From Candidatus Nitrospira inopinata (GTDB taxonomy: Bacteria; Nitrospirota; Nitrospiria; Nitrospirales; Nitrospiraceae): a stretch of DNA of 32,000 bases. The first letter of the stretch is position 1. Each line of letters opens with the position of its first letter. The DNA lies in assembly GCF_001458695.1 (NCBI RefSeq), contig NZ_LN885086.1, positions 330,001-362,000 on the forward strand, given 5' to 3'. The notes below the pieces were generated by a model. That model did no database searches and had not been told where the DNA came from. It saw only the letters and a program-made list of their open reading frames with translations. Positions 22,366-25,004 of the stretch are shown here, in pieces. The position numbers and the translations under genes are program-made.

Positions 22366-22480
22366 ACCCAACGCTCGCCGGTCCCCCGGCGCACGGTCAG
22401 ACCGTGAGCTTACTCCAAAAGGGACAAGTTATTCCTTGACAAATCCTTATGGACAGAAAATTCGTGGTGAGTGGTTAGAC
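22366..22480 (+). other. Possible long, poorly paired attC or cassette boundary in front of the R-M genes
   Basis: ACCCAAC (a perfect RYYYAAC) is at 22366-22372. GTTAGAC is at 22474-22480 and is identical to the R' core of attC-3. Only the outer roughly 9 nt of the arms pair (GCTCGCCGG versus the reverse complement ACTCACCAC). An inner perfect hairpin CACGGTC-A-GACCGTG is off-centre. Confidence 0.25.
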
Positions 22481-22539
22481 GCATAACCGATAGCCCTGTA
22501 TACTTGTCGTAATTACCCTGTCCTTGGGAGCGTGGAGCA

Positions 22540-23970
22540 GTGCTAAATCTAGTCAGCGTTTCTAAAACTTCAGCAAGCAAACAGAATGTGGCTTTAAGCC
22601 AGATAGACCATCTCGACAAGCGACTAATTCAGTATTTCAAAAGCAAGTTTGCCGTTCAGCCCTCACTCACTCGACCTCTGGTCAGTTTTCAGGCTAATAA
22701 GACCAGACCCGTTTACCGTTGGTACAAATACAAAGAAGCATTCTCGGCTTCTTTGGTCGAGCATCTATTCCACAAGTACGGAATTGCCAAAGGCAAAATC
22801 TTGGACCCCTTTGCAGGCAGTGGCACAGCCTTATTCGCGGCAAGCGCGGCAGGCATAAACGCAGACGGCATCGAACTGTTGCCTATAGGCCAACAGATAA
22901 TTGCTACCAGGCAGATTTTGGATTCGGAGTTTACGTCCGAAGACTTTGAGGTATTACGGCGTTGGTCAGCGTTGCGGGTTTGGGAGCAATCAGAAACGCG
23001 AGTTCCTTTACCAGAGTTGAGAATCACCAAAGGCGCTTACTCTGACAAAACTAGAGAGGCCATCGAGAAGTATCTAGGCGCATGCCACCAAGAGAATAGG
23101 AGGGTTCAGCTTGTCTTACGCTTCGCTTTGCTTTGCGTCTTAGAGGCTATAAGTTTTACTCGCAAGGATGGGCAATATCTTCGATGGGACTATCGGTCTA
23201 GGCGTAGGCAAGGCAAAAAAATCTTTGACAAAGGCGAAATCCCCAGTTTTGAGAAGGCCATTTGCGAGAAGATCGACGAGATTGTTGCCGACATCTCGCC
23301 CCTACACCAAACAAGTTTATTTCCCACTGAAAAACTTCAGGGTGAAATTCGGTTGTATGAGGGCTCATGCCTTGAAGTCTTGCCGAAGTTGCCTGACGGC
23401 ACATATGACGCTATCATGACTTCCCCGCCCTACTGCAACCGCTATGATTACACGCGCACGTATGCCCTAGAACTGGCTTTGCTTGGTGCCGATGAGCAAG
23501 AGCTCTTGAGACTCCGCCAAGAGATGCTTAGTTGTACCGTCGAAAATCGAGCAAAGGATTTGCTGAAAATCAATCCACGATGGACAACGGCGATAGCCGC
23601 CGCTGACGAGCAGAAACTATTACAAGCCATTCTGAAATATTTGGACGACCAAAAAGCGCAAGGGGCATTGAACAACAACGGTATCCCTAGAATGGTCAGA
23701 GGTTATTTTCACGAAATGGCCTGCGTACTCGCAGAGTGCTCGCGCGTTCTAAAACCTAACGCGCCGTTGTTCATGGTCAACGACAATGTTCGATATGCAG
23801 GAGCGAGCGTTTCAGTAGACATGATATTTTCTGCCATTGCCGAGAAACTAGACTTCTTTGTTGAAAACATCCTCGTATTACCAAATGGCAAGGGCAACAG
23901 TAGCCAGCAAATGGGAGAGCACGGGCGCGAACCGTTGCGGAAGTGCGTTTACGTTTGGAGAAAACTGTAA
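22540..23970 (+). CDS. N6-adenine / N4-cytosine DNA methyltransferase, motif I upstream of motif IV
   Basis: GTG start with GGGAG upstream. SAM-binding motif [13 protein letters not shown] at 22804-22827. Catalytic TSPPY at 23419-23433. The C-terminal part is typical of methylases ([15 protein letters not shown]). Confidence 0.85.
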
Positions 23971-24926
23971 TGCCCGCGCCCCCTTACCGCGAGCATCTTC
24001 AATCCAGCAGTGATCTTGTAACGACCTATGAAGCCACCCGCGCCGGTTTCGTGACACTTGCACTTGAAAAGAACCGACGGGCTACTCCTCACGTCGCAGA
24101 AGCCAGAGCATTACAAGAGGCCGCATCTAAGGCCAGAACGCCCGCCGACCTGCTGGCTATCAAGGGCATCGAGTCGGGCCTGCTAACTGCGGCAGGGCTA
24201 TCTGATAAATCTCTCATCCATTTACTGCCAGATGACAAAGCGGAAGCCATCAATGGCCTCATCAAGAATTTTCTCGAGCCAGCAGGGACAAAATTTGTTG
24301 AAGAACTGGTGTTTAGGTTTTTGTTGACTCGTGGTGACGCGCTCGGCGGCTCAATGCGTAACATCGGCGGTGCATTGGCGCAGAGAAAACTTACCCGTGC
24401 CATCATTTCAACGCTGACGATTGCTGGTATTAGGTATAAGTGGCAACACTCAAAGACCAAGAAATGGGCTGACATGACCGACGATGATTCGGAAATAGAG
24501 TTATCTTTGCGCGGGTTGAGTTGGGAAAGCGGAGGCAAGAGCCGCACCTTGATTTACAACCTGACCGTGCCTCTGGTTAAGAATAACGTGGATATGTGCT
24601 TGTTCAATCTCAACCCGGAGGAACTGGAAGCTACTGCGTACAAATCCGCCAAGTCATATATTGCTCTTGGCGAACTGAAGGGAGGAATAGACCCCGCAGG
24701 CGCAGACGAGCATTGGAAAACTGCACGAGCCGCCCTCGACCGTATCCGCGAAGCCTTTTCCAAGGCGAGACATTCGCCGCGCACTTTCTTTGTTGGCGCG
24801 GCGGTCGAGAAGAAGATGGCAGACGAAATTTGGGGTCAATTGAAGAAGGGTCTTCTCACCAATGCCGCCAATTTGAACGAGCCGAATCAGATAGCATCAA
24901 TTTCCCGTTGGTTATGTACGCTGTAA
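23970..24926 (+). CDS. Putative type II restriction endonuclease (PD-(D/E)xK-like)
   Basis: The ATG overlaps the methyltransferase stop (TAATG), with GGAGA 8 nt upstream. The candidate catalytic pattern is VD(24591-24593)MCLF ... 26 aa ... GELK(24672-24680)GG. I do not recognise any other domain. Confidence 0.5.
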
Positions 24927-24939
24927 ATCCAGCATGGCC

Positions 24940-25004
24940 ATCCAACCTGCGCGTGCAGCCGACCGCTTCGCGCCGCGCGCCGCTGCTGAACCGATCCGTT
25001 AGAA
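24940..25004 (+). other. attC site 2
   Basis: ATCCAAC-CTGCGCGTGCAGCCGACCGC-TTCGCG-CCGCGCGCCGCTGCTGAACCGATCC-GTTAGAA. It starts 14 nt after the endonuclease stop and ends 21 nt before the next ATG. The core resembles classical aadA-type attC (…AGCCGAC.CCGCTTCGCGG…). Confidence 0.65.

Follow-up and report, generated by a model that had tools for sequence, protein, structure and literature searches.

The window analyzed here, 32,000 nucleotides (nt) of DNA from Candidatus Nitrospira inopinata, carries on its forward strand two adjacent open reading frames (ORFs) of a restriction-modification (R-M) system: a 476-aa methyltransferase (M) at positions 22540-23970, which starts with a GTG codon and ends with a TAA at 23968-23970, and a 318-aa restriction endonuclease (R) at 23970-24926, whose ATG start occupies 23970-23972. 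The M stop codon and the R start codon share one base in the sequence TAATG (23968-23972). An attC-like site follows the R gene, and the G+C content is 48-54% across positions 21500-26000 vs about 62% on either side. Unless a strand is given, the features described below are on the forward strand.

A first-pass annotation of this DNA had described a complete methyltransferase and PD-(D/E)xK endonuclease pair, with stop and start codons overlapping as TAATG, carried as one large integron cassette. The sequence features on which it was built (the TAATG, a GTTAGAC heptamer, two promoter hexamers, both methyltransferase motifs, a VD...ELK pattern and the attC-like site, named attC-2) were all confirmed in place. 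The pair and its carriage as a single cassette were both supported by the present analysis, the latter by a homologous attC located after R in other genomes and by the match of attC-2 to a covariance model. Positions 22429-24999 (about 2.57 kb, 5' end approximate) very probably constitute a single integron gene cassette containing a complete AvaI/BsoBI-family Type IIP R-M system. These limits were drawn from the homology of the module in other genomes, which spans 22432 or 22446 to 24946 or 24966, and from the cassette junctions in relatives; the loci of relatives used for comparison are designated by L numbers (L007, L012 and so on).

The partner of the methyltransferase, for which no family had been recognised, is a BsoBI/AvaI-family Type IIP restriction enzyme. 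R matches the Pfam family PF09194 (restriction endonuclease BsoBI) with E=1.4e-170 and 567 bits, vs a curated cut-off of 25 bits, and its residues 6-318 cover the profile over the full length (positions 1-313 of 313). Comparison with the BsoBI crystal structure (chain 1dc1_A of PDB entry 1dc1) gave E=5.6e-117 and 58% identity over 315 residues, and the PADLOC model REase_II also matched R (E=1e-121). Homology to a non-nuclease family, which the first-pass annotation had named as one of the findings that would count against its proposal, did not come out of the search; the nuclease family BsoBI/AvaI came out instead.

The catalytic residues of R are those of BsoBI. In R the pattern reads V-D208, then 26 residues, then E235-L-K237 (D217, E244 and K246 in the numbering of the 327-aa track ORF), and D208, E235 and K237 align with BsoBI D212, E240 and K242, a variant of the PD-(D/E)xK active site. 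The VD...ELK motif reported earlier is thus exactly the BsoBI triad. R H248 aligns with BsoBI H253, the proposed general base. R K80 and D241 align with BsoBI K81 and D246, the readers of the degenerate Y:R pairs. These two residues are conserved in the BsoBI/AvaI/NspIII family, all members of which cut C^YCGRG (Zheng and Roberts, PMC1920265), and the recognition site predicted for R by homology is CYCGRG. The suggestion that family and specificity of the pair may be new does not hold, as R is a typical enzyme of the BsoBI/AvaI family, for which a structure has been solved.

The M protein is a Type II amino-methyltransferase of the M.AvaI/M.BsoBI type. It matches the PADLOC model MTase_II PDLC03224 with E=1.1e-161, residues 15-475 being colinear with model positions 26-480 of 481. 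Motif I (DPFAGSGT) starts at residue 89 and motif IV (TSPPY) at residue 294, 205 aa apart. The order of the beta-class enzymes, with motif IV N-terminal to motif I as in PF01555, is reversed in M: PF01555 matches only the part of M around motif I (residues 60-113 against profile positions 154-211), and residues 272-299 match the N-terminal DPPY region of CcrM. The motif order had been pointed out as differing from that of beta-class enzymes, which is correct; it is not an anomaly, however, but the norm for the whole family, because M matches the full-length Type II methyltransferase model colinearly. More than 7,900 homologues of M were found, thousands of them full-length at 76-93% identity.

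In N4-cytosine methyltransferases, motif IV is usually spelled SPPY. M.AvaI and M.BsoBI reportedly produce N4-methylcytosine (m4C), are about 480 aa long and have their genes upstream of those of the endonucleases; the literature search on M.AvaI methylation chemistry turned up only M.AvaII and M.AvaIII. M is the cognate methyltransferase of R, and its predicted product is m4C in CYCGRG.

Both proteins already have database names that agree with these assignments. R (CUQ65359.1, UniProt A0A0S4KNL7) is named "Type-2 restriction enzyme AvaI" and M (CUQ65358.1, UniProt A0A0S4KQB3) is labelled a cytosine-N(4)-specific methyltransferase. The two enzymes belong to a classical family with a solved structure, and the pair was already annotated. 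At least 23 contigs, obtained from different samples, encode an identical R protein, and its neighbourhood is the same in every case.

Relatives of R were scanned in one genome per species, which gave 558 loci; the details come from the best 80 of these. The best 80 loci belong to Chloroflexota, Cyanobacteria (including Nostoc and Microcoleus), Planctomycetota, Acidobacteriota and others. A homologue of M is located immediately upstream of R, on the same strand, in about 77 of the 80, so that the M-then-R operon is the standard layout of the family. The pair belongs to one tight family, in which Nostocaceae homologues showed 72-76% identity.

The 3' end of the cassette is attC-2 (24940-25005), with R'' ATCCAAC and R' G/TTAGAA (the slash marks the crossover position), the site ending in GTTAGAA at 24999-25005. 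The sequence 3' of the R stop codon showed 74% column identity with the sequence that follows R in four Chloroflexota loci, L012, L014, L064 and L080. In these four an obvious attC is present after R, consisting of R'' GCCCAAC, about 60 nt, and R' GTTAGCC or GTTAGAC. RNAalifold gave the expected bottom-strand fold for the homologous attCs, and the window copy keeps 18 of the 24 consensus pairs, as many as L080. A hand alignment with attC-3, the attC of the next cassette, had made attC-2 look like a wreck with a 6-nt insertion; this was rejected, because attC-2 is typical of its homologous attC family in the pairs that it keeps.

A covariance model, R1, was built from the four foreign attCs only, with no window sequence, and used, with filters disabled, to search both strands of the entire window. 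The best match was attC-2 (24937-25007; 25.7 bits, E=4e-4) and the second was attC-3 (25765-25838; E=0.048). All other matches had E>0.4, so that exactly two fell below 0.1. Run over 83 loci, R1 placed an attC directly 3' of R in L012, L014, L015, L064 and L080, and further attCs in L012 and L007. The same unit of genes plus attC hence recurs in at least five Chloroflexota genomes. The model replaced a scanner based on a regular expression and minimum free energy, which was too strict and missed L012 and L080; a MAFFT alignment of heterogeneous attCs was structurally poor and was kept out of the modelling. The simple scanner had also found, right after the R gene of Microcoleus sp. CSU_2_2 (L067:4984-5044), a 61-nt attC-like hairpin, ACCTAAC...GTTAGAT, that the covariance model did not find.

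The GTTAGAC heptamer at 22474-22480 had been taken for the core site that bounds the cassette on the left. This assignment was wrong. The heptamer occurs three times on the forward strand of the 32 kb, vs about two occurrences by chance, and no inverse core, hairpin or foldable attC was found immediately upstream of it. The homology of the module with L007, L009, L012-L015 and L064 runs through the heptamer, which lies 33-57 nt inside the cassette in L007, L012, L014, L064 and L080. L009, where an NlpC/P60 gene and a 2-oxoacid dehydrogenase gene flank the module, has GATAGAC at this position, and there too the homology crosses it. Since the heptamer is internal in the cassettes of relatives and is crossed by homology even in L009, GTTAGAC at 22474 is not a recombination site.

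The true start of the cassette was visible in L007, a sister genome with 92-95% identity to the window in the flanks. There an integrase gene (intI) remnant is followed by two different small cassettes with clean attCs and then by the M-R cassette, which starts with G/TTGGGTG at L007:4879, 57 nt upstream of the heptamer; this start and the cassette's own R'', CACCCAAC, are exactly complementary. GTTGGGC precedes the module in L012, L014, L064 and L080, and in these loci, as in L007, GTTGGG(T/C) complements the cassette's own R'' (A/G)CCCAAC.

In the window, folding and alignment with the L007 attC-B identified a degenerate attC remnant at 22369-22434, just before the M-R cassette. It retains R'' (ACCCAAC at 22369) and the L-stems; 16 extra bases follow these, and the R' region is scrambled. 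The best positional equivalent of the L007 GTTGGGT is a degenerate GTTATTC at 22428-22434, about 46 nt upstream of position 22474.

The cassette also appears to carry its own promoter. A conserved upstream block at 22460-22506, identified in a nine-locus alignment (A8) and by a consensus scan, includes a -35 element TTAGAC at 22475-22480, an 18-nt spacer and a -10 element TATACT at 22499-22504. The block, GTGGTGAG.GGTTAGACGCAT..CC.A..G....GTATACTTG, is conserved among nine loci of different organisms: GTATAC.TT is invariant, TTAGAC is present in seven of the nine and the spacer is always 18 nt long. Outside the block, only the closest relatives could be aligned. A promoter within the cassette had been proposed earlier from the hexamers, and the conservation supports it better than the hexamer match would suggest. 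The accompanying idea, that the -35 element overlaps a core site, stands for the element, as TTAGAC at 22475-22480 is the conserved -35, and falls for the core. We infer that the block acts as the promoter of the module. A promoter of its own is plausible for an R-M cassette, since M has to be produced at whatever array position the cassette occupies.

The integron that holds the cassette is a dead remnant. The integrase pseudogene at 20938-21408 retains only the C-terminal part of about 130 aa: it covers positions 187-315 of 315 of NCBIfam TIGR02249, with 179 bits against a cut-off of 265, and Pfam Phage_integrase matches the same stretch. The catalytic tyrosine is replaced by aspartate (MIDTHV). 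A complete functional integron, with an intact IntI and its catalytic tyrosine beside an attI, was not found at the locus. The truncation of the integrase, the absence of the catalytic tyrosine and the scrambled 5' junction together mark the locus as a dead integron, and for the same reasons the pair is no longer mobile cargo. The integrase remnant is co-directional with the cassettes, with the candidate attI downstream of its stop codon, which is an 'inverted' layout and not the classical divergent one.

The R-M system looks active, as judged from the intact ORFs, the low ratios of nonsynonymous to synonymous substitution (dN/dS) and the depletion of the predicted site. Both ORFs keep all key residues. 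Compared with L007, dN/dS was 0.27 for M and 0.11 for R, and in comparisons with L009, L012 and L064 it ranged from 0.06 to 0.10. CYCGRG occurs 12 times in the window vs 65.1 +/- 8.7 times in dinucleotide-preserving shuffles, an about five-fold depletion. The observed/expected ratio was 0.19 under a first-order and 0.28 under a third-order Markov model, the lowest of 16 comparable degenerate motifs. All four members of CYCGRG are depleted; the non-palindromic CCCGAG and CTCGGG occur three times vs about 32 expected. The only CYCGRG site inside the cassette is CTCGAG at 24273, in the R gene.

Several observations weigh against the reading of positions 22429-24999 as an integron cassette with an active CYCGRG-specific system under its own promoter. 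The 5' junction in the window lacks a proper GTTRRRY and is not complementary to the cassette's own R''. At the other end, attC-2 breaks six of the 24 consensus pairs and its free energy is no better than that of shuffled sequences (z=+0.75 and z=+0.17 in two tests), the latter because the sequence is 70% G+C. A tblastn search found no intact integrase within 4 kb of the Chloroflexota copies of the cassette. The CYCGRG specificity is predicted from homology and from site avoidance within only 32 kb, where several unrelated palindromes are depleted too. The promoter hexamers match the consensus at nine of 12 positions only (consensus scan), and promoter-like sites are no more numerous in the region than in shuffles.

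The imperfect 5' junction could be accounted for if the module had arrived by its own selfish mobility or by illegitimate recombination, and not by integrase capture, the attC-like neighbours being incidental. Close homologues with near-identical ends do occur outside integrons, in L009 and, after a PIN toxin gene, in L008, and an attC was detected in neither. Against this, at least five other genomes have the module together with the same homologous attC, in L007 the R' of a clean upstream attC is exactly where the module begins, with the module's first bases complementing its own R'', and L009 retains an R''-like ACCCAAC after the stop codon, which fits a decayed cassette better than an independent origin. 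We regard such an arrival as highly improbable, and as the least probable of the three alternatives weighed here. The origin of the module as an integrase-captured cassette is preferred.

The other two alternatives concern what the pair does. It could be a relic, in which the endonuclease is inactive or silenced and an orphan-like methyltransferase alone works: the integron is dead, the neighbouring cassette 1 holds a pseudogene and one CTCGAG site inside the R gene is not avoided. This is very unlikely, given that both ORFs are full length with all catalytic residues, that the dN/dS of R is 0.11 even against the closest genome, that the identical R protein recurs in different samples and that CYCGRG is strongly avoided in the host DNA. 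A system that is active with another recognition sequence, a new specificity in the BsoBI fold, is very unlikely. R is only 58% identical to BsoBI, and TspMI, a remote homologue with the BsoBI fold, cuts CCCGGG only, so that shifts of specificity in this fold are known (PMC1920265). The conservation of the BsoBI K81/D246 readers in R, the depletion of all four CYCGRG members, including the asymmetric CCCGAG/CTCGGG, and the place of the pair in one tight family together with the Nostocaceae homologues speak for CYCGRG.

On the preferred reading, of a cassette-borne and active CYCGRG system, M would produce N4-methylcytosine in CYCGRG, and R would cut unmodified C^YCGRG as a homodimer, with D208/E235/K237 as the metal site and H248 as the general base. 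Both genes would be transcribed from the internal promoter TTAGAC-N18-TATACT (22475-22504). The translation of R is probably coupled to that of M through the TAATG, and R would then probably not be made without M. The cassette is one of a family shared with Chloroflexota, where it has a homologous attC. It very probably entered a Nitrospira integron that has since died, and the pair in N. inopinata is then a fixed chromosomal defence or addiction module.

Beyond this, it is conceivable, although on balance doubtful, that an AvaI/BsoBI-type cassette family made self-sufficient by its internal promoter circulates via integrons between Chloroflexota and Nitrospira and has outlived its integron in N. 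inopinata. As part of the same tentative picture, the addictive module may have stabilised the remnant array and driven a genome-wide loss of CYCGRG, and the conserved 47-nt block might hold an undescribed control element that times M vs R in a family without a C protein.

The remaining features of the array lie on either side of the M-R cassette. A tentative attI crossover, CTCAATA-G/TTATGTG, was placed at 21535-21550 (near 21544) from two observations: CTCAATAGTT is shared with L007 at this position and the sequences diverge after it, and the R'' of cassette 1, CACATAAC, complements GTTATGTG. Cassette 1 (21545-21989) was identified by reading of the sequence and by folding. It contains a small lipoprotein-like ORF and an attC at about 21928-21989; folding of the bottom strand at 21924-21992 gave z=-2.7. 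The ORF (21571-21927) encodes the signal peptide MNIKTILILLLALSVVGC and is interrupted by an in-frame TAA at 21798-21800, after which the frame is open to 21927. It is probably a pseudogene. The stretch at 21990-22368, which separates the attC of cassette 1 from the attC remnant, is GC-rich (about 61%), and its ORFs gave no Pfam match. An ISAzo13-like transposase fragment considered at 22145-22357 on the reverse strand was found to be unsupported, with no Pfam match at E<=0.1.

Cassette 3 (25000-25835) carries a gene for a lipoprotein of Pfam family DUF4136 (25026-25760) and a canonical attC (attC-3, 25765-25835), which was recovered both by folding and by R1. The fold of attC-3 is clearly better than those of shuffles (z=-3.9), and cassette 3 starts with TTAGAAC, complementary to its own R'' GTTCTAAC. 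This cassette is present in N. inopinata and absent from L007 (window 24967-25848 vs L007:7426-7427). The junction in L007 lies inside attC-2 and about 13-19 nt past attC-3; because of these positions the absence looks like a microhomology deletion and not like a clean excision by an integrase.

A C-terminal fragment of an RND efflux pump gene (20237-20926, reverse strand; ACR_tran positions 911-1019) abuts the truncated integrase. It was considered as a duplicate of the complete czcA downstream (26163-29258), and thus a possible insertion scar, and this was rejected: the two are only 41% identical, and the fragment is therefore a distinct gene that was truncated in the same rearrangement. Just upstream of the integrase remnant, at 19261-19628 on the reverse strand, are a HicA toxin gene (Pfam E=4.6e-11) and a probable HicB-like antitoxin gene. 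Another GTTAGAC is located at 19026, and no attC was detected around it.

The locus adds one well-documented example of defence genes as integron cargo, a full-size, promoter-bearing Type II R-M cassette found across phyla. It also predicts the main restriction barrier (CYCGRG, m4C) of the complete ammonia oxidiser Candidatus Nitrospira inopinata, which could help genetics in this organism. No new enzyme family, specificity or mechanism is revealed; the details of the cassette are modestly new and the advance is incremental. As far as can be told, four points appear to be undescribed: the occurrence of this R-M family as a recurrent cassette common to Chloroflexota and Nitrospira, the conserved internal promoter of the cassette, the locking of the cassette in place in N. 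inopinata by integron decay, and the avoidance of the predicted target site in the host DNA.

Among the known systems, the closest are BsoBI, AvaI and NspIII (C^YCGRG; PDB 1DC1; PF09194). R is a full-length homologue with the same D...ExK and histidine site and the same base readers, the gene order is M then R, the methyltransferase contains SPPY and is of similar size (476 aa here), and the predicted recognition site is avoided in the host DNA here. The pair differs in its host, a Nitrospira and not Bacillus/Geobacillus or a cyanobacterium, and in being packaged as an integron cassette with an attC; its specificity and m4C product are predictions.

R-M systems in integron cassettes have been reported before (Ghaly et al. 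2023, PMC10661359, cite one of XbaI type), and sedentary chromosomal integrons are already well known to carry defence cassettes (Darracq et al. 2024, doi 10.1101/2024.07.02.601686). As in these cases, a two-gene defence system is contained in one attC-ended cassette, and a cassette-borne promoter, as proposed here, is reported for toxin-antitoxin cassettes. The enzyme family is different here, the cassette, at 2.57 kb, is large and not streamlined, and the host integron has decayed, in contrast to a working array.

The IntegronFinder 2.0 preprint lists, as the only integron-like elements of the phylum, two CALINs, attC clusters that lack an integrase, in the Candidatus Nitrospira inopinata genome (doi 10.1101/2022.02.28.482270), and gives no coordinates or cargo. 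The locus described here is probably one of them: the organism is the same and a cluster of attC sites is present without a functional integrase, with the difference that a recognisable intI pseudogene still accompanies the array.

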